In this document: in pieces, positions 21,622 to 53,041 of the stretch
How positions within the stretch are numbered: the first letter of the stretch is position 1
Layout: each line of letters opens with the position of its first letter
Source: Dictyostelium discoideum
Taxonomy: Eukaryota
Length of the DNA stretch: 64,000 bases
NCBI GenBank assembly: GCA_000004695.1
Contig: CM000151.3
Span: 8,064,001 to 8,128,000 of the forward strand
Direction of reading: 5' to 3'
Translations under genes and position numbers: made by a program
Notes under the pieces: model-generated
The model's database searches: none
What the model saw: only the letters and a program-made list of their open reading frames with translations
What the model was told of the DNA's origin: nothing

Positions 21622-22803
21622 ATGATCAATATCCCAGATGAGATATCCAACAACTTGAAAGCAGAATTGGAAATCCATTTACAAGGAGATGATAAGATAA
21701 TAACAAGTAAGAATAAATTCAAAATCCTCACGGACTGCAGAACTCAAGTAATCAAGTACTCTAACGTTTTCAACGGAGTACTAAAAGGAGTTCACAGAGC
21801 AATAATAAAACCAAAAAAGATCTTCAAAACATTCAACTGGGAAAAATCAATGGACATAGTAGAAAAAACATTGCATGAAGAAGGACTGGAAATAATCAAA
21901 TTAGATAATTTAGGTGAAAACCTGATAATACACTCATTCAACTCAATTATCAGTCCAGAGCACAAAGACCAGCTAATACATTGTAAACACATAACAATAC
22001 TATTCCTCACTACAACAGAAGAAACAAAAAATCAAAGAAAAACAAATAGGGAAATCGAAGACGAAATCTCAGAAAACTCAAAAATCACGGAACTACCAAA
22101 TTCCGAGACAAAGGAAAACACAAGAATAAACATAAAATCAAAAGAAGAATTCAATCATAAAAACACTAGCGAATCAAAAAATAACAACAAAAACAAAATA
22201 GAAAACAAAAAAGAAAATAATAAAGAAATCAATAATGAAAACATCAAAGACAAGAGCAAAAACGAAAAAGTAAAGGAAAAAGAAATTGAAAATAAAAAAC
22301 CCACAACAATTAGAGCAACAACAACAACCACAACGACAGAAACGACAAATACAATAAACAATATTGAAAAGAGAAAAGTACTTCGTATCCCACCAATAAC
22401 AGTAACATATAGTGTTGACAGCAAAGAGAAAAGGAGAATGGAGTTAACTGAAGATGAAGAAGCATTAGAAGTGGTAAGAAAGATGTTCGAAAATGAAGAA
22501 GAGAACAGAATTTTTGAAGAAAAAATAAATAACCAAAAAAAGAAGGAAACCCCAAGGTTAGCCTCAATCAAAAAAAGACAAACAATGTCACCTATCCAAA
22601 ATTCAGAATCTCCAGCAACGCCAGAGATAGTAAAAAGAAAAAGATTCAACTCATCTCCAAACCCAACAACTAATCACCAAGAAATTTTAACACCTTACAA
22701 AACTCCAATTAAAATAACAAAGGAAGAATCAGATTTAATGGAAGCAGCACTAAGAGACAAATTGCCCAAAGTACTCCAAGACGTACTTCCATCTGTCTCA
22801 TTT

Positions 22804-22809
<6 letters not shown>
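21622..22809 (+). CDS. Retrotransposon ORF1 (nucleic-acid-binding, Lys/Glu/Asn-rich)
   Basis: A 395-aa ORF lying immediately upstream of ORF2 and separated from it by a poly(A) stretch. Its composition is typical of LINE ORF1. Confidence 0.55.
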
Positions 22810-22853
<44 letters not shown>

Positions 22854-22856
<3 letters not shown>

Positions 22857-25802
22857 ATAAAAATAATGACCTGGAATTGCCAAGGTTGCTCAACAATCAA
22901 AAGCATGAATCAGACAAAAAATACAATTAACCTAATAAAACCTGATATATCAATACTAACAGAAACAAATCTAAAAAAGGATCAAAATCTAGCGCAAATC
23001 AAAAACCATTACTCAACAGGAGGAAAAGGAAAAGAAGCAAGAGGAAAAGGAGTAATGGCAATAAATCACCTAGAACAAATAGAAATTAAAAACTTGGAAG
23101 AAAAAGAAGGCAGAATCTTAAAATTTACTGCAATTCTAAACAATACGGAAATCAACATAATTGGCATCTATGCACCAGCCTCATATGACAGAAGAAAAGG
23201 ATGGTTTTCAAACAATATTTCCCTTGGAGATCTAGAACAGGCAGACATAGTTACTGGTGACTTTAACATCAACAAATATGCAAAAATCAAGTTCAAAGAT
23301 GGATCATCCGATAAGAGAAAATTCACAGAAAATGAAACAATAGAATTCCTAATGATGGAAGTAGGACTCACCGAAATACTACCAAATTCAACAACTAAAA
23401 CAACCTTCAAAGATAAACTAATCGATAGAACATTCTTATCAACAAAGATGCACCAACTCAATCACTCGTACAAGATAATAGATAAAATAAACAAATCAGA
23501 CCATAACATAGTAGTGATGGATTTCAAAATACCAAATTTCACAAAAATATACAAATCACCCCTATGGAAAATGAACTCAATAATAATTAAAGAAGATAAA
23601 ACAATAAAAAAGATAGAAAAAATAATCGACCACTACCAGGAAACCAAAAGAAAAAACCTTAACATAACGGAATACTGGATTAAGTTCAAAAAAAAAATAA
23701 AAAAACAATGCATTACAACAGAAAAGAAAAGAATACTAGAGAGAAAAAAAACGCTATCAAATCTAGCAAATGAACACACAAAAACAAAAAACAAATATGA
23801 AAAAGAAACAATATCGAACGAAATAACAATACTTCAAGAAGAAGAAAGAATAGACAGAATGATCAAAAGCTCAATCAACTACATCAACAATAAAGAAATA
23901 GCATCAAATCTCCTTACATCTATTCTTAAAAAAAGAGACTCGAGCTCCCAGATTCACAGAATAAAGAACCCATCCAATGGAGAAATCGAAACAGAACAAA
24001 AAGAAATAACAGATTGCTTCAGAAAATATTACGAGACACTCTTCAAAGAGAAAGAATGCGACCAAGAAACACATACAGAACTTCTAAGCACCTGGAACCC
24101 ACCAATAGATAAAAAAAAATTAACAGAGATGGAAGACAGAATCGAAGAATATGAGGTTAAGCTAGCAATAGAAAAGATAGCAGAAGGTAAATCACCAGGA
24201 GAAGATGGAATAACATCTTCATTCTATAAAATCCACCAACACAAACTAATTCCAATCCTCACAGAACTATTCAACTTCTTTTTAAACAATGAAATTCCAA
24301 CAGAATTCAAGAACGGTATCCTTACATCAATATACAAAGGTAAAGGGGATGTCTTGGAAATCTCAAACAGAAGACCAATAACGTTACTCAACGTAGACTA
24401 CAAAATCTACTCAAAAATAATCAACAATAGAATACTAAAAATCCTGCCAAACATAATCTCAAAGTACCAGAACGGTTTTATACCAGGAAGGCTACTCCAC
24501 AACAACATTATAGCTTTGGATTTAGCAATGGAAAAGAGTGATAGAAACACGATAATCACCTTTTATGACTTCGAAAAAGCCTTCGATTCAATATCTCATA
24601 AAGCGTTAATAAGGACTCTAAACCATCTAAAGTTCCCTCGGAAAATAACAAACACAATACTAAGCATGTTAACGAACACCAACATAAGGGTCATGGTAAA
24701 TGGACAACTCTCTGAATCCTTCAGAGCAGGAAGAGGTACAAAACAGGGCGACCCAATTTCACCAACTCTCTTCGCTATAGTATGTGAATGCTTATCAACA
24801 TCAATAAGAAAAGACAATACCATAATAGGCATAAAACTCAATCAGAACAATTCGATGAAGATTGGACAATATGCAGACGACACAGTCACACTAGCCAGTA
24901 ACATAGATGACGCAGATAAAATGGATATGAAAGTTATAAAATTTTGCCAAGCCACAGCAGCAAAAATAAACGATAATAAATGTGTGTGCATCACTAAAAA
25001 CCCAAAGATAAAGACCAAATATAAGACAATTGGGGCGAAAGAAGAAGAAAGATATCTTGGCTTTTTCTTCAACCGCAAAGGTGTAATAAGCAAAGTAGAT
25101 GATACGGTGAACAAACTGGAAAACCTCACAAAATGCTATTCGAGCGTGTCATCAACGCTAAAAGGTAGAATCACAATCCTCAAATCATACCTGCTGTCCC
25201 AACTAACATTCCAACTATACATCAACGAAATAAATGACATAAAGAAACTGGAGAACGTTAATGCCAACATGTTATTCAAAGGGGACAGGTGGGCTATCTC
25301 AAAAGAAAGGAGCAGAAGAGACTATGAAATTGGAGGCCTGGAACTCTGGAATATGGCAACCAGATCCAATGCCCAGAAAGCATGGATATACGAACAATAC
25401 CTCAGAGAAAAAGACGACCAGAACTGCCCTCCACATATGGAAGTCTGGAAGTCGGAAAAAGAAAACTCACTATCAAGGATTCACATCAAATGCTGGAAAG
25501 CCTGGAAGTTGTTGCACCACCCAAGAGAGCGAATAACTCTCAAACTAAACCAAGTCAAACCCAAATATGAAAACAAACAAAAATTAAAAGTAATCTATAG
25601 AAACATGATGGATATCAAATACAAGGGATGGAACAAACACCAGCCAACAACAGGTCAAAAACTGATTCAAAAGAACATTAATCACCCAATTCTACCATTT
25701 AGAGAAGCCAGATCAATCACAACTATCAAAGGAAGAGACTTAGCATGGAGGTATCTACTCAAGGCACTTCCAAAACACCATGGGGAGAATTGCCACTTGT
25801 AA
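22854..25802 (+). CDS. Retrotransposon ORF2: apurinic-type endonuclease plus reverse transcriptase
   Basis: A 982-aa ORF. It has an EEP/APE-like N-terminus, RT motifs (PGRLLHNNIIALDLAMEK; FYDFEKAFDSISHKALI; GTKQGDPISPTLFAIV; QYADDTVTLA) and a C-terminal Cys/His-rich segment (HHGENCHL). Confidence 0.85.
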
Positions 25803-26281
25803 AGAAGAAGAGTCGTCTATGCACATCTTCTTCGAATGCAAATCAATAAAACAGGATATCGACTCAATCTATCAAAAGGTCTGTAAAGACTCTAACAACA
25901 CTTACCACGGTCCATGGAGCGAAAAAGTTCTCGGAAAACTACTCACACCATTCTCATCAAATCTGATAGGAGCCATTATGGAATCGATATGGTACAGAAG
26001 AAATCAAATAAAATTCAACGATAACACTACAATAATAACAGAGAACCAAATAATTCATAAAATCAAAAAAGCGAGAGATGCCGAATGGGATAGAACAAGA
26101 AAGATAGTAGAAAAGCAACTACGTCAAGAACTAAAATGCACTGATAACCGAGAGTCAATCAATCGGACCGCATCAATAAAAAGAAGACTCGAAAAATTCA
26201 GCCACAACTGGAACTCGAAACTCATGACCATAAACATCCCGGAACACTTCATACCATACTGCTCATATAACACCAACTACT

Positions 26282-26286
<5 letters not shown>
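25780..26286 (+). CDS. Retrotransposon 3' ORF. This is a possible out-of-frame continuation of the ORF2 C-terminal Cys-rich region.
   Basis: A 168-aa ORF that overlaps the ORF2 stop. It contains CKEEESSMHIFFECKS and ends in the duplicated 3' module. It may indicate a frameshifted, non-autonomous copy. Confidence 0.3.
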
Positions 26287-26318
<32 letters not shown>

Positions 26319-29758: not shown

Positions 29759-30099
29759 TTATTAGAAAAATAATAAAACCTTACATCAACTTTAAATTAT
29801 CAGATCTAATTTGAGAAAATTCAAATGATGGAAATTGAATAAAATCATTTGAATGAATTGTTAAAGAGGTTATATTTTCGATTGTCGATATATTACTCCA
29901 TGAGGATTGTAAAAAATTGGGAAGTAATACCATATCAAATCGACCCTTAATAAATCTAAGCAATGGTATATTCCTTGTTATAATACTATTATCTGATTCC
30001 CATATTTTAGAACCATCCAAATCATTTTCAAAAAAAATTGAATGTGATATAAATGATAAACTAATCCATGGTGGAATATTTAATGAACTATTATATTGT

Positions 30100-30193
<94 letters not shown>

Positions 30194-30791
30194 TGTTGTT
30201 GTAGTAGTAGTAGTAGAAGTAGTTAGTAATTGTGAAATAAAACGAAATTTATTATATAATAATAATAATAATAATTATACATTACAATTGTATTAAGTTT
30301 TTTAAATATGAAAATTTAATTGTTGTTTCAATTGTTTGGCTAACAATGGATGCGTGAAAGTAATTTAATGATGGTTGTAATTGAGAGAATAGTAAATTAC
30401 TACCATACAAATTTAAAAATTCTAAATTTTGCGGTAATGCCGAATAAAGAGTGCTATTGTAAATTGTTGAATTTAGTGAAAGATCATTTAAATTTTCAAA
30501 ACATAAAAAATCATCACTAATCACATATGAATTTGATTGTCCAAGATTTAAACTATTAATTTGATTTTCATAACAACCTACAGATACAATTGGTTGACTA
30601 GTATTTTGAGTATTACAAAAATCATATTCAAGTGTTGAACTATTTTTAAAATTAACTTTTGAAATTGTACCTAAATTTATTAATAAATTTTCCATACATT
30701 CATTTTCTTTTGGACTTAATATTTGTTGTTGTGAATTTACAAAAACTATTAAAATAAATAATAAAAATAAAATTAGATAAAAGTTGAACAT
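26925..30791 (-). CDS. Type I membrane protein with LRR, EGF, IPT/TIG and TM regions, paralog B (tgr-like), carrying one extra EGF repeat. Four exons: 30791..30286, 30060..29785, 29605..29142 and 29016..26925.
   Basis: Its N-terminal half is closest to paralog A. Exon 4 (693 aa) adds an EGF module (CNPLDCNGNGICTTLTGKCQCDSNHQGDACGLP) and has a distinct TM and tail (VLPVAITVPVVACALIIALLYVIYKKRFVEARFKRQIKLLNRK). Donors are GTAATG, GTAAGG and GTAAGT. The introns are filled with (CTA)n and (ATT)n microsatellites on the coding strand. Confidence 0.7.
29023..29087. repeat. (AAT)n microsatellite in paralog B intron 3
   Basis: Direct read: aataataataat.... Confidence 0.9.
29668..29755. repeat. (AAT)n microsatellite in paralog B intron 2
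   Basis: Direct read: aataataat... about 30 units. Confidence 0.9.
30101..30236. repeat. (TAG)n microsatellite of about 40 units, with a short TTG/TAG/AAG degenerate end, inside paralog B intron 1
   Basis: Direct read: tagtagtag.... It reads (CTA)n on the gene's coding strand and lies between the GTAATG donor at 30285 and the attag acceptor at 30061. Confidence 0.9.
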
Positions 30792-31762
30792 ATTATAAAA
30801 ATAATGATAATAATTATTTTTTTTTTTTGATGACTTTTTATATTGTTGGGAAAATCTTTAAAATTTGATATTTTTTTTTTTTTATTAAGATATTTTGGGG
30901 GATTACATATAATTTGAAAAAAAAAAAAAAAATATTAAAAAAAATAATATTAAAAAAAAAAAAAAAATATCTAAAGAACCTTTGATTTGAAATTAGATTT
31001 CGATTGGTGGTTTATTTCTTTATTTTTTTTGTTTTTTTTTTTTGAAGAATTTAAATGATATTTTTCATTTATTTTGAATTACTATAAAAAATATATTACC
31101 AGTTCAATTTTGTTTTTTTTTTTTTTTTTTTTTTTTGTTTTTAGAAAACTCAAAGACTTTTTTTTAAAGAATGATGATATAATTGAAGAAGCTCCTACAA
31201 TCACCACCACCTGAGAGAAATAAGGTCTAATGAAACATTTCTTTTGCATTTTAACAGATCCTCAGATAACTTATTAATTTGAAATCAATACCAGGAAATA
31301 TTGTAAGTTTAGATAATATCATTACTTTTTGTTATTTTTATCAATTGATAAAAATTCTTCCATTGAAAATAAAAATAAAATAAAATGTAAAAAAAAAGTG
31401 AAAATAATAAAAATAAAAACAAACACAAAAGCACGAAAAACGGAGGGTTTTGTGGATTTATTTTTATTTTTATTTTTATTTTAATTTTTATTTTTTTATT
31501 TTTATTTTATTTTGTTTTTTTTTTTTGTTTAATTATTTTTTTTTTTTGGATGTTTTTACAAAATTTTCTTTGTCTTTTTTTTTTTTTTTTTTTACAAACA
31601 ATCATTTTTTACTAAAACTTTAAAAAGCCATGACCTATAAGTCTTAAAAAGAATTTTTGTTTTTCTGAAAGTTTGAAAATTATCGTTTGCAGTAACATGA
31701 TGTTTTTTTTTAATTTAATTTAATTTAATTTTTTTTTTTTTTTTTTTTTTTTTTTTGGATTT

Positions 31763-31805
<43 letters not shown>

Positions 31806-31939
31806 AATTTTTGAAAAAAAAACAAACAAACAACTTTATTTATTTATTTATAATGTAAGTATCTTTTTTTAAAATCCGTCAATAAAAATAAATCTGAATT
31901 GAAAAAATAAAACAAATTAAAGAAAACAGAAATAAGATT

Positions 31940-31974
<35 letters not shown>

Positions 31975-32118
31975 GAATTAAAATTATTTGAAAATTTTGC
32001 TTACACATAATGGTGTTGGGTGCCAGATAGGGCACTTTTTAAAATAATTTAATTTTAAAAAAAAAAATAAAATAAAAAAATAAAAAAAATATATTATATT
32101 CGACTTCAAAAAATTTCA

Positions 32119-32161
<43 letters not shown>

Positions 32162-32396
32162 CATTATATTTCATAACCCTCATAAATAATATTTATTAAT
32201 ACAAATCTTCTTTTTTTATTTTAATTAATTATTTAATAACTTGTAAAATATTATATATATTTTTTTATTTTAAATTTATTTATTTTTTAATTTTTTATTA
32301 ATTTTAATAACCCACTCCACAAAAACCCGTTTAATAATTTCACAAAAAAAAAAAAAAAAAAAAAAAAAATATTTTATTGTGTTTGCATATAAACAA

Positions 32397-32427
<31 letters not shown>

Positions 32428-32570
32428 AAAAAAAAACAATAATATTTAAGATATTTATAAAAAAAAAAAGAAAAAAAAAAACCTTCCGAATTTTATATAA
32501 AGAAAAAAAAAACAATAATATTTAGATATTTATAAAAAAAAAAAAAAAAAAAACAAATAAATTAAAGAAA

Positions 32571-33513
32571 ATGTATAATCCACCACCACCATCCGGTTCA
32601 CAAGGTAACAATAATTATTATAGACAACCATCATCCACACCCGGTGTTTCTAACCCAAATCCACAAGCTAATCAATTTTTACCACCTCCACCTTCTAATA
32701 CACAAGCTCCAAGACCAGGATTTCCACCAAGTGCTCCACCACCAAGTGCCCCAGCAGGACAATACAGTATGCCACCACCACCACAACAACAGCAACAAGC
32801 AGGACAATATGGTATGCCACCACCACCATCAGGTTCAGGTATAGGTACAGGTGTTTCATTAGTAAAAGATCAACAAATTTCATTAAGTAAAGAGGATCCA
32901 TATCTTAGAAAATTAACAGTAGGTTTAGGTTGGGATGTAAATACAACACCAAGTGCACCATTTGATTTGGATGCAGTAGTTTTTATGTTGGGTGCAAATG
33001 GTATGGTTCGTCAACCAGCAGATTTTATTTTTTATAATAACAAACAATCTAGGGATGGTTCAATCTTTCATCATGGTGATAATTTAACAGGTGCAGGTGA
33101 TGGAGACGATGAAGTCGTATCTGTAAACTTACAAGCAGTTTCACCTGACGTTACTCGTTTGGTTTTCGCCGTCACCATTCATCAACCTGAATTAAGAAGA
33201 CAAAATTTCGGTATGGTTCCAAGAGCTTTCATTCGTATTGCAAACCAAGAAACAACTAGAAATATATGTAGATACGATCTAACCAATGAAGGTGGTACAA
33301 ATACTGCTATGATTGTTGGTGAAGTTTATCGTGATCCTCAAAATCCTCAAAATTGGTCATTTATTGCTGTTGGTAAATCTTTCCCTGGTGGTTTACAATT
33401 CCTTTGTCAAATCTTTGGTGTAAGTTATATTTATTAATTAATTTTTTTTTTTTTTTTTAATTTTATTAACAATTATTTTTTTTTTATTTATTATATAGGT
33501 AAATGCGTCATAA
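32571..33513 (+). CDS. TerD-domain protein with a Pro/Gln-rich N-terminus (resembles the Dictyostelium CABP1 cAMP-binding protein family). Exons: 32571..33419 and 33499..33513.
   Basis: The N-terminus carries PPPP, QQQQ and GQY(S/G)MPPPP repeats. The C-terminus is a TerD fold ([19 protein letters not shown]...[14 protein letters not shown]...[29 protein letters not shown]...RLVFAVTIH). A GTAAGT donor at 33420 and a tatatag acceptor add a 4-aa terminal exon. Confidence 0.7.
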
Positions 33514-34023
33514 ATTTTTTAATTTTAATTTTTTCTTAGGCATTTTTGGCAAATTAGTTGGTTGGAATTTTCACTCATAATTTTGTATACAGATATTTTT
33601 TTTTATTCCACATAACACAATAAACAATCACTTTTTTTGTTCTAAAATTACACTTTTATTTTTTATTTTTTTATTTTTGTTTAACCCAATTTTTAACCTA
33701 CTCGTTAACGTGGGAAGATTTTTTTTTTCCCAAGTTTCCAATTGTTTTTAAAATTTTATTTTTTTATTTTTTATTTTTTTATTGATGCCCTTTCAACTCT
33801 AAACGATTTTTTTTAAAAATTCAAACAAATTTTAAATTGCCGAATCGTTTTTTCAAGATCTGATTAGGCAAGTTTTTTCCACCAAAAGAATAAAAAAAAT
33901 TTTTAAAAAGTTGGGCTAAAGATATTTTAAAATATTTTTTTTTTTTTTTTTTGCAGTTTTAATTTTTTATTATAATTTTATTTTATTATATATATTTTTC
34001 AAAGAGTATACCACTAAATTAAA

Positions 34024-34948
34024 ATGTTAAAATTTATTCAAAAAATTTCAAAATCAAGGTGTAATTTTTTATATATATTTTTAATTTTAATTTTAATTAA
34101 TTTTTCAAATCCAAAAGTAAATTCTCAAACATTAAATAAAAATGAATATGATTGTTTAAAGAGTTTGTTAACCAATTTGGGATCAATCAATAAAGTTAAA
34201 ATTAATGCAACATCTTTAGAATATTTATTTTGTGGTACAATGGAATTTTCATCACCAAATGTTCAAATATTTTGTAATGAAGGTTCAATTTCAAAACTAA
34301 ATGTAGGACAAGCTAATTTCACATATACAGTAACTGATGATTTTTCATGTTTTAAAAATATGACTGAATTATCAGTGGATGATATTGTTTATGATAAAGA
34401 TAAATTTTATAATTAATATCCTCCAAATGCAAAAGAATTTTCATTTGATGGCACTGATTTAGTTTATGGAACTATTTCACCAATTATTAAAAAATATAAC
34501 TCAATGTCAATACAAAAAATACCAACAATAATTAAATTTTCTTGGTATTTAAATACAACTAAAATGTAGGTATAAAATAAATTATTATTATAATTAAAAT
34601 TATTTTTTTTTTAATCATTTTTATTTTCCTATTTAAAAAAAAAAAAAAAGTCATATAGAACTCTTTAGTACCTTTTAAAGGATATTTTTTAGTTTCATTT
34701 GATAATGATCTTGATGGTTCAAAAATTTGGGATTGTTCTATTTTAATTCATTCTCTAAATGTTCCATCATTAAATTTTATTACAGGCGATATTTCTTTAA
34801 ATCTAATGTTAGATTACGATCAATCATCATGGGGAAATATTACAACTTTTGGAGGAATGAGATATATGTCTCTAAGAGCTTCAGATTTATCATCTTTTCC
34901 ATTAGAGTTTTCAAATTTAAGATCTGAAGTTTTAAAATCTATGTATGT

Positions 34949-34992
<44 letters not shown>

Positions 34993-37621
34993 GACAAAAA
35001 AAAAAAAAAAAAAAGATATATTGAAATACCATTTTTAGCAGTATCTTCAAAGATTGATTTATCATTAATAGGAAAATCATTAGAATCATTATCTTTTTTT
35101 CATCCAAATAATTTTACATTTGGCGGCTTATTTCCAATAATTTTACCATCCAATGAAGCATTTAAAAAATTGGAATTTGTTAATGGAAATATTGAAACAT
35201 TTGATTTTTCATTATTTACAAATGTTGAAACATTATCATTAGAAAGTAATTTAATGTCAAATGATTTTCCTTCAAGTTTCAATAGAACAATTCATAGAAA
35301 ATTAAAACACCTTGATATAAGTAATAATAAAATGACAGGTACAATTGATGATTCATTTTGTCAATTAGAAATCATTGTTACAAATAATTCAATGACAGGT
35401 TTAATTCCAACTTGTTTTACATGTTTCTTTGGATTACCAGAAATAAATTTAGAAAGATATTTTATTGGAAATAATTTTATAAATTTAAATACACCTTCTT
35501 CACCATGTAAGTGTTTTATTTTTTATTTTTTATTTTTTATTTTTTATTTTTTATTTTTTTTTTTTAATTTGTTTTTTTTTACTAATTCCATTTATGATAT
35601 ATATATATATTTGTATTTAAGCAATTATCATTCCAAATATAGTTTTTAATAATACTTCAATTATTGAGGGTATTCCAATAGTTTTTTATGAATATTTAAT
35701 ATTTGGTGAAAATTTAGGTGGTAGTTGGGTTCCATTTACAGCTGTCTCTGATTCTGTAGGAACACCAATGATTTTTTCAATGATTGAGTCAAATAGTTTA
35801 TTTAAAGTATTTTGCTATGGAGAGCCCAAGTTTCCTTTAAACTTATCATACAGTAAGTCTAACCCAAACTATACATTTACTTTATCATTGGGAATACCAC
35901 CAATATTAAATTTAGTAGATTGGCAATCAAGTACAACTGATTTAGTAATAGATGGTTCATTCTTTACATATAATGGTTCTATAATTAATATTACAATTGG
36001 TAATGAAAATTGTTTCGTTACAAATACAAATTTTTATCAAATTAAATGTAAACTTTCAAATGTTATAGATCAATCATTAGAGGATATTATATCATATATT
36101 ACAATTGGTAATTTTAAAACTCAATTCACTTTAAATCCAGGTGTAATAAATACAATTTTAAATTGTACTGAAAATTATAATGATTGTAATGGTAATGGTA
36201 ATTGTTTATCTGATATTGGTAAATGTAAATGTGATTCAACTCATCAAGGTGATGATTGCTCAATCCCATATATAGAATGTTTAAATGATTGTAATAATGT
36301 TGGTCAATGTAATAATCAAACTGGTATTTGTTCATGCCCAATCACTCCTTACGAATGGATTGGTATTGATTGTTCAATTCCATTACATACAATATCAGCA
36401 GTTTCACCAAGTGATACCAATGGTGGTAGTGCTTCGATTTATGGTTGGTTTAGTAATAATCATACTGATCCACAAGTTTTCATTGGTAATAAACAATGTA
36501 TACCAATTTTTAGTATATCTGAAAGTGAAATTATTTGTAAAGCACCACCAGGTACAGGTTTAAAATCAGTAAGTGTAATTCAAAATTCAATCAATGTAAC
36601 ATCAAAAGATATTTATCAATATTATTCAAATGATAAACAATGTCCAAATCATTGTACATCGACATCAAATGGTATTTGTAATACAACAACTGGATATTGT
36701 AATTGTATCGGGAGATGGAGCGGTTATGATTGTAGTTTATATTCAAATCCAAGTGGTGGCGATAATAATAGTGGAATACCAGGATCAAATACAACAATAG
36801 ATGGTAATACTGGTAATACAAACATTACAAATCAACAAACAAATTATCAAATTTTAATTACAAAATTAATAGAGATAGATTTCAATGGTAATCAAATCAA
36901 TGAATATCTTTTATTAAATAAATGGTCAATAATTTCAAATATTAGTAAAACAGTTTACACATTCATTCAATCAATTCAAAATGATATATGTAATATTACA
37001 TATACAATTGAAGAAGTTAATAAAGATAGAGATGTATCATTTGCAGGTATTAATTTTAAATTAACAAGTGGATCAGTTAAAATGACAGTATCAATTGAAA
37101 ATTATCAATATTCAAGTAATTTAAATACATTACAATTACAAATGAAATCAAGTGTAAATGAAATTCAAACAAATAATGAAATGAATGATTGTAACGATGA
37201 TCAAATTGAAATTGATAGTACACCGAACCAAGATAATTCATTAAATTATATAACAATTAAAAAAGATGCAAAAGTTTTAAATGGTAGATTTATAGACAGA
37301 ATCGAAAGTGATGGTATATCAACATTTATGCAAACTGTGTTAGTATCAAAATCAAATGATTCAATTACAGTTGGTATGAATTTACCTCATTGTACAAAGA
37401 AATGTTTATTAGATCCTGACTTCTCTGTATTGATTAGTCCTGAATTCATTGATGAATGTGATGATAATAATCGTGAGTCATGGTTTTTACCAGTTGTGAT
37501 CGCTGTTCCAGTTGGAGGTCTAGCTGCAATTATTGCTATTGTTTTCATAATTTACAAAAAAAGATTTGTTGAAGCCCCATTAAAAAGAAAATTAAAATCA
37601 CTTAGAAATTATAAAAATTAA
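34024..37621 (+). CDS. tgr-like paralog C, a near-duplicate of paralog E, with apparent disruptions. Exons are approximately 34024..34565, about 34651..34942, about 35018..35506 and 35622..37621.
   Basis: Its exon and intron sequence is about 95% identical to paralog E. Exon 1 carries an in-frame TAA at 34414-34416 (aat taa tat cct) where paralog E reads aat tca tat cct, which truncates the reading frame to 130 aa. An extra TAG at 34656 sits in the region used as the exon-2 start in paralog E. Exons 3-4 (LRR, EGF, TIG, TM) are intact. Confidence 0.5.
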
Positions 37622-37950
37622 AATTGAAAATAAAAAAAGAAATAAAAAATAAAAATATCTAACCCAGGCATCTATAAAGTATAAAAAAAAAAAAAATAGT
37701 GGAAATAAAAAAAAAAAAAAAAAAAAGGTTTATATTAGAACAGATCCGAGCTGTGTTTAAAAAAAAAAAACTTTTTAATATTCAAAAGGTTTTAAAAAAA
37801 AAAAAATGGAAAAAATCAAAAAAAAAAAGAAAAAACAATGATGATTTTTTGTTTAAAAAAAAAAAACGTCTTTCCCAAACATAGATTTGTTTTCCAATAA
37901 ATTTCAAAACTAAAAAACAAAAACCCGAAAAGACACTCTTATTTTTTTTA

Positions 37951-38010
37951 TTTAATATCTTTTAAATTTTTATTCATTACGTAATGAATAAAAATTTAAA
38001 AGATATTAAA
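37951..38010. repeat. Perfect 60-bp palindrome (30-bp arms with no spacer, centred on cattac|gtaatg)
   Basis: The arms read tttaatatcttttaaatttttattcattac | gtaatgaataaaaatttaaaagatattaaa and are exact reverse complements. Weaker inverted flanks (aaacgtctttc ... gaaaagacgttt) extend the palindrome-like region to about 37860-38060. Confidence 0.9.
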
Positions 38011-38197
38011 TAAAAAAAAATACGTAATTCAAATAAAATTTTGAAAAGACGTTTTTTTTTTTTTATTTTTGATCAATTAAATATATCATAATAATAATAA
38101 TAATAATAATATTAAATAATATTAAAAATAAATAAATAAAAATATAAAATAAAAAAAAAATAATTTTAAAAATAGTTAATTATTAAAAAAAAAGTAA

Positions 38198-39156
38198 ATG
38201 AAAAAATCTAAATCATTGATTTTTTATTTTTTTTTTATTTTTTTTTTATCTATTCAAGTAAATTCAAATGAATTAAATAAAAAAGAATATGATTGTTTGG
38301 TAAACTTTTTAACAAATTTGGGAAAAATATCAAATGTTGGTAAAAATGAAAAAACATTTGAATATGAATTTTGTAATCCCTTTTTTGTTTCATTACCAAC
38401 CGAAATAAAATGTAATCAAGGTTCAATCACTTATTTAGATACTGTTCAGTCAAATATTAGCTATATAATTAAAGATGAATTATTATGTTTTGATAATATT
38501 AATTATTTTTTACTTTCAAATATTAATTATGATAGTGCCATATTTTTCAATTCTTTCCCAAAGAGTTTAAATAAAGTTATTTTGACTGGAACGAATTTAC
38601 AATTTTCCAAAGTTACAAAAGATCTTCAAACGTTATCGATATCAATTATTTCTCAAAAAATTCCAACTACATTAAAATTTTCTTGGTTTTATAAAACTAC
38701 TCAATTGTATGTATTTATTAAATTTTTAAAAAGTTAAAAATTTGTATTAATTAAATATTAAATTGTTTTTTTGAAAAAAAAAAAAAATAAAAATAAAAAA
38801 AAAAAATAAAAAAAAAAAAAAAAATAAAAAAAAAAAAAAAAAAAAAAAATTAGTATTTTATCATCTACAAGTTTTTCAAGCAATAAAACACATTCAATAG
38901 CATTTGAAAATGATCTTAAAGATTCTGAAATTTGGGAAACTAATTACTTTAATATTATTTCATTAAATTTGCCAAAATTTAATAATGTTAAAGGATTTGT
39001 TCAAATCGAGTTAATAGAAGGATATAATCAAACTTCGTGGTCTAATATTAAAGAGATTGGGAATGTAACAAATATCTATATTAGAACAAATGATTTAACA
39101 GAATTTCCAAATGATCATCTATCAAATATCAGGTCTGATTCGATAGAGAAAATGTA

Positions 39157-39195
<39 letters not shown>

Positions 39196-41854
39196 ATATT
39201 AAATTAAACATTTAATTTTTTTTATTACTTAGAAATTTTGAAGTTCCGTTTAAATCTGTTAAAAAAATGTGCGATTTATCATCAATAGGTAAATCAATTC
39301 AAATTATTTCCTTTTCAAAATGTGGTAGAGATTTTTCATTTAATGGTTTAATGCCAATAATTTTACCAAATAACCAAGATTTTCAATATTTTTTTTTAAT
39401 TGGTGGCTATATTAAGAATTTTGATATTTTGCAATATAAAAGTGCTGAATATATTACATTAAGCAATAATTTGATGTCTGGTACCTTACCTTCAATTAAT
39501 AGTTTTAAATTCGGTAAATTAAAATATATTGATATTGGTTTTAATTTAATAACAGGTGAATTGGATGACTCATATTGTGAATTTGATATTATTGTAAACA
39601 ATAACTCAATGACTGGATTAATTCCAACCTGTTTTACATGTTTCTTTGGACTAACTGAATTAAATTTAAAATCGAGATTCATTGGTAATAATTTTACAAA
39701 TTTAGATCAACCTTCATCTCCATGTAAGTTGAAGTAGTATTTTTTAACTTTTTTTTAAAATTAAAAAGATTGAATAAATTTGAAAAAAAATTACTGACTA
39801 TATTTTATTTATAATAATAAAGCAATTATTTCACCAAATTTGATTTTCTCAAATATTGAAATATTTCAAGGTCAACCTCATTATAAATATTATATCTTTG
39901 GTGAAAATTTAGGTGGGGCTTGGATTGATGAATCAAATGCAGAGATTATTGGCTTTGATGTGAAATTTAGGGTAATAAAACCAAATAAACTAATATCACT
40001 TTACTCTCTTTCATCATTTTCTAGTATTGTAACATTTTCATATAGTAGAATAAATTCAAATTATAGATTTACTTTATCAGCAGATTTAATAACACCAAAA
40101 TTAATAAAGGTTGAATGGGTTAGTAATTCTCAAGATTTAGCTTTTGAAGGTTTTTATTTTTCCTATAATAAATCAATAATTAACATTTCAATTGGTGATG
40201 TTAATTGTCAAGTTACAAGTAGTACTTTTTATAATATTAACTGTACTCTTTTGGCACCAATAGATCTTACTTTAATTGATATTGTATCATTTATAACAGT
40301 TGGTAATTTAACAACTCAGTTCACTTTAAATCCAGGTGTTACAAATAATTTACTATATTGTATTAATGGATGTGGTGGAAATGGAATTTGTTTTTCCGAT
40401 ATTGGTAAATGTAAATGTGATTCGACTCATCAAGGTGATGATTGTTCATTACCATATATTGAATGTCCAATTAATTGTACCAATTTAAGTGTATGTAATA
40501 ATGTAACTGGTGAATGTTCATGTCCATCATTCTTAATTTGGAGCGGTATTGATTGCTCATTTCCATTACATACAATATCTGCAGTTTCACCAAGTGATAT
40601 CAATGGTGGTAGTGCTTCAATTTATGGTTGGTTTGGTAATATTCATAATGACCCACAAGTTTTCATTGGTACTAAACAATGTATACCAATTTATAATATA
40701 TCTGAAAGTGAAATTATTTGTAAAGCACCACCAGGTACAGGTTTAAAATCAGTAAGTGTAATTCAAAATTCAATCAATGTGACATCAAAAGATATTTATC
40801 AATATTATTCAAATGATAAACAATGTCCAAATCATTGTACATCGACATCAAATGGCATTTGTAATACAACAACTGGATATTGTAATTGTATTGGAAGATG
40901 GAGCGGTTATGATTGTAGTTTATATTCTAATCCAAGTGGCGGTGGCGATAATAGTGGTGGATTACCAGGATCTAATACAACAATAGATGGTAATACTGGT
41001 AATACAAATATTACACTGGTAATACAAATATTACAAATCAACACACAAATTATCAAATTTTAATTACAAAATTAATAGAGATAGATTTCAATGGTAATCA
41101 AATCAATGAATATCTATTATTAAATAAATGGTCAATAATTTCGAATATTAGTAAAACAGTTTACACATTCAATCAATCAATTCAAAATGATAAATGTAAT
41201 ATCACATATACAATTGAAGAAGTTAATAAAGATAGAGATGTATCATTTGCGGGTATTAATTTTAAATTAACAAGTGGATCAGTTAAAATGACAGTATCAA
41301 TTGAAAATTATCAATATTCAAGTAATTTAAATACATTACAATTACAAATGAAATCAAGTGTAAATGAAATTCAAATAAATCATGAAATGAATGATTGTAA
41401 CAATGATCAAATTGAAATCAATAATACACCAAATCAATATAATTCATTAAATTATATAACAATTAAAAAAGATGCAAAAGTTTTAAATGGTAGATTTATA
41501 GACAGAATCGAAAGTGATGGTATATCAACATTTATGCAAACTGTATTAGTATCAAAATCAAATGACTCAATTACAGTTGGTATGAATTTACCTCATTGTA
41601 CAAAGAAATGTTTATTAGATCCTGATTTCTCTGTATTGGTTAGTCCTGAATTCGTTGATGAATGTGATAATGATCGAAAATCCTTTTTTTTACCAGTTGT
41701 TATAGTGGTTCCTATTGTTTTTTTAATTTTAATAATTATTTTTGTAGTTATTACTATAAAAAAAAGATATGTTGAGATGTATTTATTTAAATCAAAAATA
41801 AAACAATTGGCAAACTTAAAAAATATTAAAATAAATAAAAAAACAGAATTATAA
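38198..41854 (+). pseudogene. tgr-like paralog D, frameshifted by a 20-bp tandem duplication. Exons are 38198..38706, 38854..39153, 39233..39723 and 39823..41854.
   Basis: The 20-mer ctggtaatacaaatattaca occurs twice in tandem (40996-41015 and 41016-41035) within the otherwise conserved GNTGNTNITNQQTNYQ region. The 39840..41063 ORF stops at ...NITLVIQILQINTQIIKF*. The conserved C-terminal domains then continue in another frame (41288..41854). The N-terminal half is divergent (MKKSKSLIFYFFF...). Its TM and tail match paralog E. Confidence 0.55.
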
Positions 41855-42400
41855 TAAATAAAAATTTGATTAACAGGATTCATTTTAAAAAATTTTTAAA
41901 TATCTTCCAAACAAATCCAAATATCCATTTTCTTTTTTTTAAAAACAAATCAACACTGAAAATTCTTAAGTTTGTACGGCCGTACACAAAGTAATTTTAT
42001 GCACACCTATTTTACCTTTATTTTCCCTTTATTTTTACATTTTTTTTTTTTTGGTGAATTTTTTAGAAAAAAAAAAAAAAGAAATAAAAAAAACGAAAAA
42101 AAAAAATCAAACACCGCAATTACCTTCCGGCAAAACATTAAAATAAAAAAATAAAAATAAGATATTTTTTTTTAATATTTTCATTTTTGTGTCTGTTCGG
42201 TGTTTCAACCAAAATTTTAATCTATTAATCGTTTTGTTTAAAAAAAAAAAAAATGTTAAAATGTTGGGAAAAAGTTTTTTTTTTTTTTTTTTTAATTTTA
42301 ATTTATTTTATTTTATAATAATTTTATTTATTTTATTTATTTTATTTAATTTTAATTAATTTTATTTTATTTATTTTTCAAAATATATCTCCAAATTAAA

Positions 42401-43337
42401 ATGTTGAATTTTATTCAAAAAATTTCAAAATCTGGGTGTAATTTTTTTTATTTATTTTTAATTTTAATTTTAATTAATTTTTCAAATCCAAAAGTAAATT
42501 CTCAAACATTAAATAAAAATGAATATGATTGTTTAAAGAGTTTGTTAACAAATTTGGGATCAATCAATAAAGTTAAAATTAATACAACATCTTTAGAATA
42601 TTTATTTTGTGGTACATTGGAATTTCTATCACCAAATGTTAAAATATTTTGTAATGAAGGTTCAATTTCAAAATTAAGTGTAGGACAAGCTAATTTCACA
42701 TATACAGTAACTGATGATTTTTCATGTTTTAAAAATATGACTAATTTATCTGTTGATAATATTGTTTATGATAAAGATAAATTTTATAATTCATATCCTC
42801 CAAATGCAAAAGAATTTTCATTTGATGGCACTGATTTAGTTTATGGAACTATTTCACCAATTATTAAAATTTTTGACTCAATGTCAATACAAAATATACC
42901 AACAATAATTAAATTTTCTTGGTATTTAAATACAACTAAAATGTAAGTTTAAAATTAATTATTATTATTATTATTTTAATGAATACTAATAAAATTTTTT
43001 TTTTTATCATTTTTATTTTTCCTATTTAAAAAAAAAAAAGTGTAATAGCCTCTTTCGTACCTTTTAAAGGATATTTTTTAGTTTCATTTGATAATGATCT
43101 TGATGGTTCAAAAATTTGGGATTGTTCTATTTTAATTCATTCTCTAAATGTTCCATCATTAAATTTTATTACAGGTGAAATTACTTTAAATCTAATGTTA
43201 GATTACGATCAATCATCATGGGGAAATATTACAACTTTTGGAGGAATGAGATATATGTCTCTAATATCTTCAAATTTATCATATTTTCCATTAGAATTTT
43301 CAAATTTAAGATCTGAAGTTTTAAAATCTATGTATGT

Positions 43338-43380
<43 letters not shown>

Positions 43381-45993
43381 CAAAAAAAAAAAAAAAAGAT
43401 TTATTGAAATACCATTTTTAGCAGTATCTTCAAAAATTGATTTATCATTAATAGGAAAATCATTAGAATCATTATATTTTTTTCATCCAAATAATTTTAC
43501 ATTTGGTGGTTTATTTCCAATAATTTTACCATCAAATGAAGCATTTAAAAAATTGGAATTTGTTTATGGAAATATTGAAATATTAGATCTTTCATTATTT
43601 ACAAATGTTGAAACATTATCATTAAAATGTAATTTAATGTCCAATGGTTTTCCTTCAAGTTTCAATAGAACAATTCATAGAAAATTAAAACACATTGATA
43701 TAAGCAATAATAGTATTACAGGTACAATTGATGATTCATTTTGTCAATTGGAAATCATTGTTACAAATAATTCAATGACAGGTTTAATTCCAACTTGTTT
43801 TACATGTTTCTTTGGATTACCAGAAATAAATTTAGAAAGATATTTTATTGGAAATAATTTTATAAATTTAAATACACCTTCTTCACCATGTAAGTGTTTT
43901 ATTTTTTATTTTTTATTTTTTATTTTTTTATTTTAATTTGTTTTTTTTTACTAATTCCATTTATGATATATATATATATTTGTATTTAAGCAATTATCAT
44001 TCCAAATATAGTTTTTAATAATACTTCAATTATTGAGGGTTCAATAGTTTTTTATGAATATTTAATATTTGGTGAAAATTTAGGTGGTAGTTGGGTTCCA
44101 TTTACAGCTGTCTCTGATTCTGTAGGAACACCAATGATTATTTCAATGATTGAGCCAAATAGTTTATTTAAATTATTTTGCAATGGAGAGCCCAAGTTTC
44201 CTTTAAACTTATCATACAGTAAGTCTAACCCAAACTATACATTTACTTTATCATTGGGAATACCACCAATATTAAATTTAGTAGATTGGCAATCAAGTAC
44301 AACTGATTTAGTAATAGATGGTTCATTCTTTACATATAATAGTTCTATAATTAATATTACAATTGGTAATGAAAATTGTTTGGTTACAAATACAAATTTT
44401 TATCAAATTAAATGTACACTTTCAAATGTTATAGATCAATCATTAGAGGATATTATATCATATATTACAAATGGTAATTTAATAACTCAATTCACTTTAA
44501 ATCCAGGTGTAATAAATACAATTTTAAATTGTACTGAAAATTATAATGATTGTAATGGTAATGGATATTGTTTATCTGATATTGGTAAATGTAAATGTGA
44601 TCCAACCCATCAAGGTGGTGATTGCTCTTTGCCATATATAGAATGTTTAAATGATTGTAATAATGTTGGTCAATGTAATAATCAAACTGGTATTTGCTCG
44701 TGTCCAATCTCTCCTTATGAATGGAGTGGTATTGATTGTTCAATTCCATTACATACAATATCTGCAGTTTCACCAAGTGATACCAATGGTGGTAGCGCTT
44801 CAATTTATGGTTGGTTTAGTAATAATCATACTTATCTACAAGTTTTCATTGGTAATAAACAATGTATACCAATTTATAATATATCTAAAAGTGAAATTAT
44901 TTGTAAAGCACCACCAAGTACAGGTTTAAAATCAGTTAGTGTAATTCAAAATTCAATCAATGTAACATCAAAAGATATTTATCAATATTATTCAAATGAT
45001 AAACAATGTCCAAATCATTGTACATCGACATCAAATGGCATTTGTAATACAACAACTGGATATTGTAATTGTATTGGAAGATGGAGCGGTTATGATTGTA
45101 GTTTATATTCAAATCCAAGTGGTGGTGGCGATAATAGTGGTGGATTACCAGGATCAAATACAACAATAGATGGTAATACTGGTAATACAAATATTACAAA
45201 TCAACAAACAAATTATCAAATTTTAATTACAAAATTAATAGAGATAGATTTCAATGGTAATCAAATCAATGAATATCTATTATTAAATAAATGGTCAATA
45301 ATTTCAAATATTAGTAAAACAGTTTACACATTCATTCAATCAATTCAAAATGATAAATGTAATATCACATATACAATTGATGAAATTAATAAAGATAGAG
45401 ACACAACTTTCGCAGGTATTAATTTTAAATTAACAAGTGGATCAGTTAAAATGACAGTATCAATTGAAAACTATCAATATTCAAGTAATTTAAATACATT
45501 ACAATTACAAATGAAATCAAGTGTAAATGAAATTCAAACAAATAATGAAAATGATTGTAACAATGATCAAATTGAAATCAATAATACACCAAATCAAGAT
45601 AATTCATTAAATTATATGACAATTAAAAAAGATGCAAAAGTTTTAAATGGTAGATTTATAGACAGAATCGAAAGTGATGGTATATCAACATTTATGCAAA
45701 CTGTGTTAGTATCAAAATCAAATGATTCAATTACAGTTGGTATGAATTTACCTCATTGTACAAAGAAATGTTTATTAGATCCTGATTTCTCTGTATTGGT
45801 TAGTCCTGAATTCGTTGATGAATGTGGTGGTGATAATGATCGAAAATCCTGGTTTTTACCAGTTGTTATAGTGGTTCCTATTGTTTTTTTAACCTTAATA
45901 ATTATTTTTGTAGTTATTACTATAAAAAAAAGATTTGTTGAGATGTATTTATTTAAATCAAAAATAAAACAATTGGCAAACTTAAATAAATAA
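42401..45993 (+). CDS. Type I membrane protein with LRR, EGF, IPT/TIG and TM regions, paralog E (tgr-like), apparently intact. Exons are 42401..42942, 43041..43331, 43399..43889 and 43991..45993.
   Basis: Signal peptide MLNFIQKISKSGCNFFYLFLILILINFSNPKVNS. All splice junctions are phase-consistent (GTAAGT, GTATGT and GTAAGT donors; poly-A introns ending in ag). The 619-aa exon 4 holds EGF x3, TIG, the conserved unknown domain and a TM anchor (FLPVVIVVPIVFLTLIIIFVVITIKKRF). Confidence 0.7.
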
Positions 45994-46956
45994 AAACAAA
46001 AAACAGAATTACAAATAAAAGTAAAAAAAAAAAAAAAAAAAATTTTTAATTAAATTGTTTATTTTATTGACATAAAAGGTTAAATCACATAAATATTTAT
46101 TCTCTTTTTATTTGTGTTGATTTTGTAAAGCAATCTTCAAAAAATGCATTGAAAATAGGTAAAAAATGATGTTTTCGAAATGATGTTGTGTCCAATTGGG
46201 TTGGGTGATAATTTAAATTTGCATACAAAAAAAAAAAAAAAAAAAAAAAAGAAAAAAAAAATTGCAACACCTGATTTGTAATTTACCAACAAAATAAGTA
46301 GTCAAAAACCTGGAAAATAGAAAAGAAGGAGGAAATAAAATAAAAAAATAAATAAAAAAAAAAAATAAAAAAATAAAAAAATAAAAAGGCATGAAACAGT
46401 GCAGTGGTTTGAAAATAATTTCTTTTTTTTTAATTTTATTTTTTCAAAACAGTAAAATTTTTATTTTTTTTTTTATTTTTTTTTAATAAAACGCTTAACA
46501 AAAAAAAAAAAAAAATCAAGCATTGTTTTTTTTTTATCCCCACCAACACATCATCAAAAAAACACATAAAACTGATATAAAAAATTTTAAAAAAAAAAAA
46601 ATTATTTTTAATATTTACACCGCACAACTATTTATAGTTCACATTAAACAAAAATAAAAAAATAAATAAAAATAAAAATAAAAAAATAAAAATAAAAAAA
46701 ATAAAAAACAAAAAAAAATAAAAAAATAAATTAAAAAAAAAAAAAAAGAAAAAAAAAACACACAGATAACCCGGGGTCTTTTATTTTTTCTTTTTTTCTG
46801 TTGTCAATCATAATTTGTAAAAAATAAAAAATAAAAATAAACACACACACACAACGAATTTTATTAATCATATAAATTATTTATAACAAAAAAAAAGCTT
46901 TTTTTTTTTTTTTTTTTTTATCAAACAATAATAAATTAATAAAACAATAATAAAAA

Positions 46957-47113
46957 ATGGATCCATTGTCAATATCAATGGAGAGTAAAGTTGTATTATT
47001 AGGTAGTTCAGATGTTGGGAAAACTGCTCTATCACTTCGTTATGTTGATGGAATATTTCCTAAACGTTTAACTTCAACAATAGGAGCATCCTTTTTAACG
47101 CGGACAATGTATG

Positions 47114-47172
<59 letters not shown>

Positions 47173-48037
47173 ATATTCTCAACACTGTTTTGAAAATAAA
47201 AATAAAAAATAAAAAATAAAAAATAAAAAATCTCATTACTTACAATTGTCACACACAATAATTTTTAAAAAAAAAATAATAATAATCATAATAATGTGAA
47301 AATACTTTTAGAAATATAGAAGGAAATAAAATTAAATATCTAATATGGGATAGTGCTGGACAAGATAGATTTCGAAGTTTAGCTACACTTTATTATCGTG
47401 GTGCATGTGTTGCAATTTTAGTATTTGATATAACTCAACAAAAAACATTTGATATAGTTAAAGGATGGGTTGAAGAATTAAAAGCAAATATTCAAGAAGA
47501 AATTAGTAAGTATATATAATGTATATATATTAATGTATATATATATATTAATTATTTATACTTTATAATTTTTTTTTTTTTTTTTTTTCAAAAATTAATT
47601 AATTAATAATAGTAATGGTATTATGTGGAAATAAAATTGATTTAGAACAAAATAGACAAGTTAAAAGTGAGACAGCAAAATTATATGCAGATGAAATTAA
47701 TGCAATGTATGTTGAAACCTCTGCAAAAGAGAATGAAGGTGTTGAAGGAATGTTTTTAGAGATTGGAAAGAAATTAATATTAAATAAACATAATGAATAC
47801 TTTAAACAATTTCAACAACAACAAAAACTTCATAAACAATTCCAACAACAAAATCAAAGCTTATATCAATATCATATACAACAACAAAAACATCAACAAC
47901 AACAACAACAACAACAACAACAAATTTTTAAAAATCAACAATTTTATAATAATGGTCATCTTCAAGGCAGTATAAATGGTCATAATAATCAAAATTCAAC
48001 AAATTATAGTGATAATAGTGATCAATGTTGTGGTTAA
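46957..48037 (+). CDS. Rab-family small GTPase with a polyQ C-terminal extension and a CCG terminus. Exons: 46957..47108, 47312..47505 and 47613..48037.
   Basis: G1 motif GSSDVGKT; switch region TIGASFLT; G3 WDSAGQDRF; G4 GNKIDL; G5 ETSAKE; prenylation-type C-terminus ...DQCCG. The introns have GTATGT and GTAAGT donors and ttttag and aatag acceptors. Confidence 0.75.
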
Positions 48038-48402
48038 CTTTTAGATATATTAAAAAACAAAAAAAACAAAAAAACTAAAACAAAAAACAAAAAACAAAAA
48101 CAAAAACAAAAACAAAAAACAAAAAGGGTGATATTAAAATAAACATGTATAAAAAAAGAAAAAACTTGTAAAAAAAAAGAAATAATATTATATTTTAATT
48201 TATTATTTATATGGAAATGCGTATTAAAACTACTAATTTAGATTTAATTTTAATTTCAAACACTTTTACAAATACGGAAGGAAATAAAATATTTAAGATT
48301 TGGAAAAGAAAATTTCCAAGTTTTCAAAAACTTTCTTTTTTTTTTTTTTAAAAAATTTTTTCTTTATTTTTTTTTATTTTTTTTTTATTATTATAATTTA
48401 AT

Positions 48403-48426
<24 letters not shown>

Positions 48427-48434
<8 letters not shown>

Positions 48435-49998: not shown

Positions 49999-50814
49999 TA
50001 TTATATTACTTATTACTTATTATTATTGGTCTTTTTTTTTTTTTTTTGTTTTTTTTCTAAAATTTTTTATTTTATTTTTTTTATTTTATTTTTTTATTTT
50101 ATTTTTTTATTTTATTTTTTATTTATATATTTATATATACACCCTAAGTTCTATTTTAAAAATAAAAAAAATAAAAAAAATAAAAAAATAAAAATAAATA
50201 GATTTAAATCTTTTTAGGCCTAAAAAAGTATAATTAAATTTTTATTTTTTATTTTTTTTTTTTTGTTTGGGGTGTCGAAAAAAAAAAAAACAAAACAAAA
50301 AAAAAAAAAAAAATTAAAAAAATTAAAATTGTTATCCCTGGGTGTTTTTTTTTTAAACAGGGTAAGGAGGGGGATATTTTGAAAACAACAATTTTTTTTT
50401 TTGTTTTTTTTTTTAATTTATTTTTATTTTTGTTTTTTTTTTTTTTGAATTGGTACCAAATTATTCCGTCAAAAATGATATCGCCCACCATACTGCCGAA
50501 TTTTGAATGAAAAAAAAAAAATATCTTCATTTTAATTACAACAAAAAAATACACACCAAAACAAAAAAAAAATGTTATAACTAATAGTTAATTTATTATT
50601 ATAATAATTATTATAAATTTTTTATTTTTTTTTAATTTTATTAATAAAATCAAAAATTTCTTGGGGAAATGAACCAAAAAAAAAAAAAAAAAAAAAAAAT
50701 ATAAAAATAAATTAATAAATAAAAAAAAGAGACTCTTTTCGCATCTTTTTGATAAACAAAATGAAATTTTTTTTTTTTTTATTCATCAAAATTTCATTTC
50801 ACAAATCTCAAAAC

Positions 50815-51443: not shown

Positions 51444-51540
<97 letters not shown>

Positions 51541-52925: not shown

Positions 52926-53041
<116 letters not shown>

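Follow-up and report, generated by a model that had tools for sequence, protein, structure and literature searches.

This locus raises the question whether a member of a tandem receptor cluster on chromosome 2 of Dictyostelium discoideum AX4 has been disabled or is intact and only appears broken in the reference sequence. The window, that is, the whole stretch of 64,000 nucleotides that was analyzed, has a base composition of about 20% G+C with short, AT-rich introns and harbors a tandem cluster of genes for ComC-family receptors. This family of Dictyostelium EGF-like and LRR transmembrane proteins takes its name from communication mutant C, and its members in the window consist of a ComC-type LRR, a β-sandwich, EGF, TIG and the ComC supersandwich, followed by a putative transmembrane helix. 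The translation of gene E equals DDB_G0277557 exactly over all 1108 aa, gene D (from 38198) matches DDB_G0277555, including a Phe that is found only in AX4 where other compared copies have Trp, and a minus-strand paralogue at about 15.8-19.3 kb of the window is DDB_G0277431. A transcript coordinate for gene D puts the window near 8.1 Mb of the chromosome. The gene order TerD, C, D, E, Arf/Roc GTPase, ammonium transporter is the same in all three D. discoideum loci fetched. In the AX4 protein collection there is no entry for gene C, though D, E, and DDB_G0277431 are all there, and the annotators evidently accepted the lesions described below. Searches found no literature on the gene C locus, with DDB_G0277555 alone surfacing in two supplementary or incidental contexts, and no dictyBase identifier or status for gene C.

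The features of gene C and, for comparison, of gene E are as follows.

34024..34565, plus strand: gene C exon 1, with a putative signal peptide (hydrophobic N-terminus, judged by eye) and the first part of the ComC-type LRR; homologous to exon 1 of gene E, 42401-42942
34414..34416, plus strand: in-frame TAA, codon 131 of gene C; the AX2 copy of C, gene E and the C/E orthologues of strains CR116C and OT3A all have TCA (Ser)
34566..34650, plus strand: gene C intron 1, phase 2, with one more base private to the AX4 reference at 34579 (A; T elsewhere)
34651..34942, plus strand: gene C exon 2, 292 nt in the window versus 291 nt in AX2 and in E
34659..34660, plus strand: AA doublet with one surplus A, giving a +1 frameshift; single A in the AX2 copy (GAAC versus GAC), all other copies being of the shorter, in-frame length
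34943..35015, plus strand: gene C intron 2, poly-A rich, its A-run 10 nt shorter in the Nanopore-based AX2 assembly
35016..35506, plus strand: gene C exon 3, LRR region, open, without any difference in AX2
35507..35621, plus strand: gene C intron 3, with the acceptor AG (35620-35621) that public paralogue models employ
35622..37621, plus strand: gene C exon 4, encoding β-sandwich, EGF, TIG, ComC supersandwich, putative transmembrane segment and short tail, open and identical in AX2
42401..45993, plus strand: gene E, DDB_G0277557, comparison copy, with exons 42401-42942, 43041-43331, 43399-43889 and 43991-45993

Exon 1 of gene C runs from the ATG at 34024 to the GTAGGT donor at 34566, which is homologous to the GTAAGT of gene E at 42943, and its full length is 542 nt, or 180 codons plus 2 nt. 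At 34411-34422 gene C has AAT TAA TAT CCT where gene E has AAT TCA TAT CCT (42788-42799), and the TAA is in frame from the ATG. The nonsense change reported in a first-pass annotation of the window is present as described, apart from the position given for the TCA of gene E, which occupies 42791-42793 and for which 42793, the coordinate quoted, is only the last base. Reading the frame from 34024 also bears out that the ORF of exon 1 is cut to 130 aa. At 34415 the window has A, whereas all six other copies examined have C. An extra stop, TAG at 34656, had been listed as well. These letters are indeed at 34656-34658 and fall in the frame of the remaining exon 2, but they are not the lesion itself: they occur also in the intact AX2 copy, out of frame and harmless, and the TAG is a by-product of the +1 frameshift, the underlying change being a net gain of one base at 34659/34660. 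Behind the ag of the acceptor, exon 2 starts with TCATATAGAACTCTTTAG in the window versus TCATATAGACTCTTTAG in the AX2 copy of C, and E and the wild-strain copies have other bases there with the same in-frame length as AX2 C. When read from the E-type acceptor at 34650, gene C is out of frame and encounters a stop, TAA, at 34676-34678.

Downstream of these two places the gene is undamaged, as had been claimed for its 3′ exons: no stop interrupts the remainder of exon 2 or exons 3 and 4 ahead of the terminal TAA at 37619-37621, and the exonic indels between C and E, apart from 34659/34660, are all multiples of 3. To call gene C a near-identical twin of gene E was an overstatement, with a DNA identity of 92.7% over 3.76 kb and a dS of 0.094. 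Intron 1 and the start of exon 2 differ between the two genes, and C-specific flanks for telling C from E are, for example, TCATATAGA...CTCTTTAG.

Splicing does not lead around the two lesions. Every GT donor at 34027-34900 of the window was combined with every AG acceptor up to 34935, and 85 of these combinations formally give an open frame of more than 700 codons. They are the argument in favor of gene C being expressed as written, be it with another intron-1/exon-2 boundary, as the first-pass annotation had considered, by stop-codon readthrough, or by downstream re-initiation. However, the TAA lies upstream of intron 1, and all 85 combinations need a donor upstream of 34414, within sequence that E and all orthologues conserve as coding, and cost the LRR domain 60 or more of its conserved codons. 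The frame-restoring introns would be 272-869 nt long and composed of coding-type sequence, and their GT sites are also present in E, where they evidently do not serve as donors. If the conserved phase-2 donor at 34566 is used, exon 2 is not brought into frame past the TAG by any AG acceptor (direct reading of 34651-34670), and a downstream start would lose the signal peptide. The exhaustive GT..AG search on the window sequence yields no splicing pattern with an intact gene C product, a different exon-2 boundary is unsupported, and expression of the gene as written is scarcely credible.

Nanopore plus Illumina assemblies exist for AX2-214, the wild D. discoideum strains CR116C and OT3A, and sister species (Holland et al., 2025, PMC12745789). 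One assembly, GCA_054883475.1 (locus tags ACTFIT_; locus L003), is collinear with 26000-55998 of the window at 99.73% identity, and we infer that it represents AX2-214, since it is the sole D. discoideum genome of that study not described as diverged from AX4; an AX2/AX4 identity of 99.5% has been given for another locus (Holland et al., 2025, PMC12745789). Over 33800-37800 AX4 and AX2 differ at five places only.

34415: A (TAA) in AX4 versus C (TCA) in AX2, exon 1, codon 131
34579: A in AX4 versus T in AX2, intron 1
34659: extra A in AX4, absent in AX2, start of exon 2
34954-34963: A-run, 10 nt shorter in AX2, intron 2
37702: G in AX4 versus A in AX2, 3′ flank

Within the 3.3 kb of coding sequence of gene C, the only two differences between AX4 and AX2 are the two lesions, with no synonymous or missense change besides, and gene C with the AX2 bases encodes 1107 aa without interruption. 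The AX2 assembly has neither lesion, and the apparent pseudogene is most likely no real feature of the DNA of this organism. In the AX2 annotation, C, D, and E are fused into one prediction of 3150 aa (ACTFIT_004848; L003 10001-21945), an automated merge which hides the intact gene C from protein searches.

In the 30 kb compared, 11 substitutions and 1 non-homopolymer indel (34659) separate the AX4 reference from AX2, in addition to differences in homopolymer length, the shorter run being on the Nanopore-based AX2 side at nearly all of the latter. Eight point differences of this region can be aligned to the diverged strains and thereby polarized; at all 8 the AX4 reference is derived and AX2 ancestral, and AX2 has the outgroup base also at single-copy sites (TerD gene, intergenic DNA). 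Random errors of the AX2 assembly would not agree with the outgroups in every one of these cases. Among the AX4-only substitutions, transversions make up 9 of 11, and 10 of 11 copy a neighboring base versus 4.3 expected (P = 0.0005); the extra A at 34659/34660 likewise doubles its neighbor. Such neighbor-copying changes have the appearance of peak-shift base-calling errors. The difference rate amounts to about 4e-4 per base, which, at a D. discoideum mutation rate of 2.9e-11 per site per generation (Saxer et al., 2012, PMC3466296), places the two sequences orders of magnitude too far apart for two NC4 stocks. Independent AX4-derived lines have 1,916 substitution discrepancies versus the reference in common, which the authors put down to errors in the reference or to differences between stocks (Saxer et al., 2012, PMC3466296). 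With about 1e-4 per site, those discrepancies, which are not new mutations, are of the same order as the 4e-4 encountered here, with the limits that non-uniquely-mappable sequence, which may include this cluster, was excluded in that study and that 34415 and 34659 were not matched to its sites. Considering polarity, spectrum, and rate of the differences together with these published discrepancies, most of the AX4-only differences in the 30 kb must be reference errors, the lesions of gene C among them, and the data suggest about one reference error per 2.5 kb in 26000-56000 of the window.

We assign a probability of about 0.8 to the reading that both stop-causing changes are base-call errors of the reference and that gene C is intact. 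The TAA at 34414-34416 and the extra A at 34659/34660 would then be base-calling errors of the Sanger-era AX4 chromosome-2 reference, and gene C would be an intact and functional gene for a predicted ComC-family type-I cell-surface protein. This reading is based on lesions that are absent from the sister-strain assembly and derived in the AX4 reference alone, and on a repaired gene that is open, constrained, and equipped with all domains. A sequencing correction had been named in the first-pass annotation as an outcome that would overturn its pseudogene, and the evidence points there, the coding sequence of C in AX2 being identical apart from the two lesions. Our inference that the real AX4 DNA is also free of both lesions is drawn from the frequency, polarity, and spectrum of the AX4-only differences and not from AX4 reads.

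If, instead, the lesions were real and private to the AX3/AX4 lineage, they would constitute a very young null allele with two hits, acquired once AX2 and AX3 had been derived separately from NC4, and AX4 would lack a ComC-family surface receptor that AX2 keeps intact, the locus giving at most a secreted fragment of 130 aa without recognizable domain. Gene C does have the look of a fresh disablement in the window, which had led to its description as a very young pseudogene; both lesions are in the reference and derived with respect to every other copy, the AX4 protein model is missing, Pfam recognizes nothing in the 130-aa product, at least one wild strain can dispense with C, given the truncated orthologue in OT3A, and the neighboring paralogue D has a real frameshift in this lineage. 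Moreover, AX3, the parent of AX4, was reportedly isolated after chemical mutagenesis, which increases the prior for real mutations in the AX4 lineage. However, nitrosoguanidine is expected to cause G:C to A:T transitions, which account for at most 1 of the 11 AX4-only substitutions, and this mutagen was rejected as their source. Two independent hits in one 3.3-kb gene within a few decades of culture are extremely unlikely at 2.9e-11 (PMC3466296), the roughly ten other AX4-only differences in the 30 kb bear the same transversion-rich, neighbor-copying signature, and C shows no further coding change, synonymous or missense. With both lesions missing from AX2, a very young pseudogene is only a minority reading, as an allele private to AX3/AX4, and we consider a true double-hit null in AX4 unlikely.

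Conversely, the whole NC4 lineage including AX2 might carry the lesions, with the AX2 assembly, a mixture of Nanopore and Illumina reads, being wrong because paralogue reads entered its polishing. For about 60 nt on each side of 34415, gene C is identical to E, and the paralogues agree with AX2 in having a C at 34415, so that polishing with mis-mapped E reads could in principle yield it. At 34659, in contrast, the flanks are C-specific, AX2 having TCATATAGACTCTTTAG where E reads TGTAATAGCCTCTTTCG, and mis-mapped E reads are therefore no source of the AX2 state there. AX2 also agrees with the outgroups at single-copy sites, and chance assembly errors would not reopen the frame at two separate places, which makes an error on the AX2 side very improbable. 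Assembly chimeras derived from paralogues were rejected as the origin of the lesions, as the A at 34415 and the extra A are found in no paralogue. C/E gene conversion as a source of differences was rejected in that no patchiness is demonstrated, the longest identical tract of 167 nt lying within the permutation expectation (99th percentile 176 nt). Exact look-ups of the 130-aa and 617-aa ORFs of C in public assemblies gave no match, and neither did the exon-1 ORF of E as a control, which renders them uninformative. In JGI metagenome contigs scanned for either allele of the frameshift site, none was found.

For the preferred reading, that gene C is intact, the window sequence was repaired with the AX2 bases and the domains of its product were scored against Pfam gathering thresholds. 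The proposed product would carry a signal peptide, the ComC-type LRR, β-sandwich, EGF repeats, TIG, the ComC supersandwich, a transmembrane helix and a short tail. The ComC supersandwich ComC_SSD (PF22933) reaches 340.5 bits (cutoff 24) at residues 829-1045 and is encoded by exon 4, a part that is open in the unrepaired window sequence as well, whereas LRR_ComC (PF24141), with 62.1 bits (cutoff 27) at residues 106-404, is disrupted in the window as written, both at the TAA of codon 131 and at the frameshift. The second β-sandwich PF24143 (31.2 bits, cutoff 27), EGF_2 PF07974 (36 bits, cutoff 22.1) and TIG PF01833 (30.4 bits, cutoff 20.9) are recognized too, and hydrophobic stretches seen by eye are NFLYIFLILILINF near the N-terminus and WFLPVVIAVPVGGLAAIIAIVFIIY ahead of the basic tail. 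The truncated product of 130 aa, in contrast, gives no match in Pfam. With the AX2 bases, dN/dS of C is 0.34 versus the CR116C orthologue and 0.47 versus E. Judged from the dN/dS of 0.34 and from exonic indels that are otherwise multiples of 3, gene C has been under purifying selection. These patterns exclude an old pseudogene only, as a pseudogene that is only decades old would show no relaxation.

Orthologues of C are ACTFIR_005927 from CR116C (1090 aa), ACTFIY_004374 from D. cf. discoideum (1109 aa) and the first third of ACTFIT_004848 from AX2. They are syntenic, located between the TerD gene and D, and are open copies with the start of exon 2 in frame; they read ...DKFYNSYPP... at the lesion site and have the C-type tail ...KRKLKSL(G/R)NYKN in common. 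The CR116C copy of C is about 93% identical to the window. For the whole locus, including the flanking single-copy genes, CR116C and OT3A show just about 91-94% identity to AX4 (L001 and L002 versus 30000-50000 of the window). With about 93% identity to its syntenic orthologue and 91-93% to the E copy of the other strain, C is no nearer to the former than to the latter, which blurs C/E orthology. The OT3A copy of C (L002 6584-9600) has a 12-nt in-frame deletion in exon 1 and breaks off after ...NFYQIKCTLSNVL, past the second β-sandwich, into unrelated sequence; it has been called as a gene of 522 aa and is devoid of the EGF, TIG, supersandwich, and membrane parts. It represents either a natural truncation or a misassembly in a more fragmented genome. 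At its other end, gene C shares with DDB_G0277431 a segment of 162 nt that is 100% identical (37430-37591 versus 15858-16019 on the minus strand, about 18 kb apart) and comprises the last 162 coding nt of C. Overall, C and DDB_G0277431 are only about 84% identical, and C and E only 74% over this segment. By its sequence, the segment, which covers the membrane segment and tail, looks like a gene-conversion tract.

Gene D is a different case. In its conserved exon-4 coding sequence, 40996-41015 and 41016-41035 on the plus strand form a 20-nt tandem duplication (CTGGTAATACAAATATTACA twice) that causes a +2 frameshift. The duplication is the same in AX2 and AX4 and is present neither in the CR116C orthologue nor in E, both aligned directly, and the OT3A D protein is in frame through this region. 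Being identical in AX2, the 20-nt duplication is real. The 1113-aa AX4 model of D spans it by a 62-nt "intron" (41019-41080), at the expense of about 15 conserved residues, and a de novo transcript overlapping D contains an ORF of 565 aa only (Singh et al., 2017, PMC5282741, Table S2). At 41828-41830 the ancestral stop, TAA in the CR116C orthologue, has become AAA in AX4 and AX2, whereby the frame is extended, and the AX4 model introduces a further intron (41777-41847) and ends in a C-terminal tail that looks unrelated. The truly damaged paralogue of this lineage may thus be D and not C. In addition, AX4 reads TTT (Phe) at 41685-41686 of gene D versus TGG in AX2 and in the aligned D and E/C orthologues, where it codes for the Trp of a ...SWFLPVV... 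motif directly ahead of the putative membrane segment. This tandem GG-to-TT change within a T-run is a probable further reference error, carried into the AX4 protein.

Two more parts of the window stand out. Adjacent segments at about 50686-53003 and 53291-55534 are about 92-93% identical to each other and correspond in the AX2 annotation to two tandem genes of 663 and 637 aa without Pfam hit; they are another young tandem duplicate pair. The stretch at about 22000-26300 has unusually high G+C (up to 0.37) and a strong AT skew (0.3-0.5), its right end overlaps a reverse-transcriptase (RVT_1) gene of the AX2 annotation, and it is probably a retrotransposon. Just past it, there are AX4/AX2 substitutions at 26530 and 26611.

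Under either reading, errors or real lesions, the biology is ordinary. In the case of reference errors, a real ComC-family receptor of 1107 aa is missing from the AX4 gene set and a two-base correction restores gene C, which bears on uses of the AX4 proteome such as knock-outs, proteomics, and family counts. The difference of about 1 base in 2,500 over 30 kb between the Sanger-era chromosome 2 and a modern assembly calls for caution, and apparent young pseudogenes of AX4 should be checked against AX2 before they are interpreted. If the lesions were real, AX2 and AX4, the two laboratory strains of Dictyostelium in widest use, would have a hidden functional difference in a family with a link to intercellular communication in development, and the double hit would be a hint that loss of gene C was selected for in the AX3/AX4 lineage.

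Among known systems, the ComC family itself is the closest. Gene C shares the four-exon structure and the domain order of gene E (LRR_ComC, second β-sandwich, EGF, TIG, ComC_SSD, transmembrane segment), and its closest named relatives are DDB_G0277557, DDB_G0277555, and DDB_G0277431; in the transmembrane and tail segment it conforms to the DDB_G0277431 type and not to that of E. A wider parallel exists with birth-and-death receptor families such as tgr, of which 26 pseudogenes are known in AX4 (Holland et al., 2025, PMC12745789). These are likewise tandem TIG/EGF surface proteins with strain-wise gain, loss, and truncation, for which the OT3A copy of C and the frameshift of D are counterparts at this locus. 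Unlike young pseudogenes of the tgr type, however, gene C has in the reference disabling changes that are not even found in the sister strain, and its sequence shows purifying selection.
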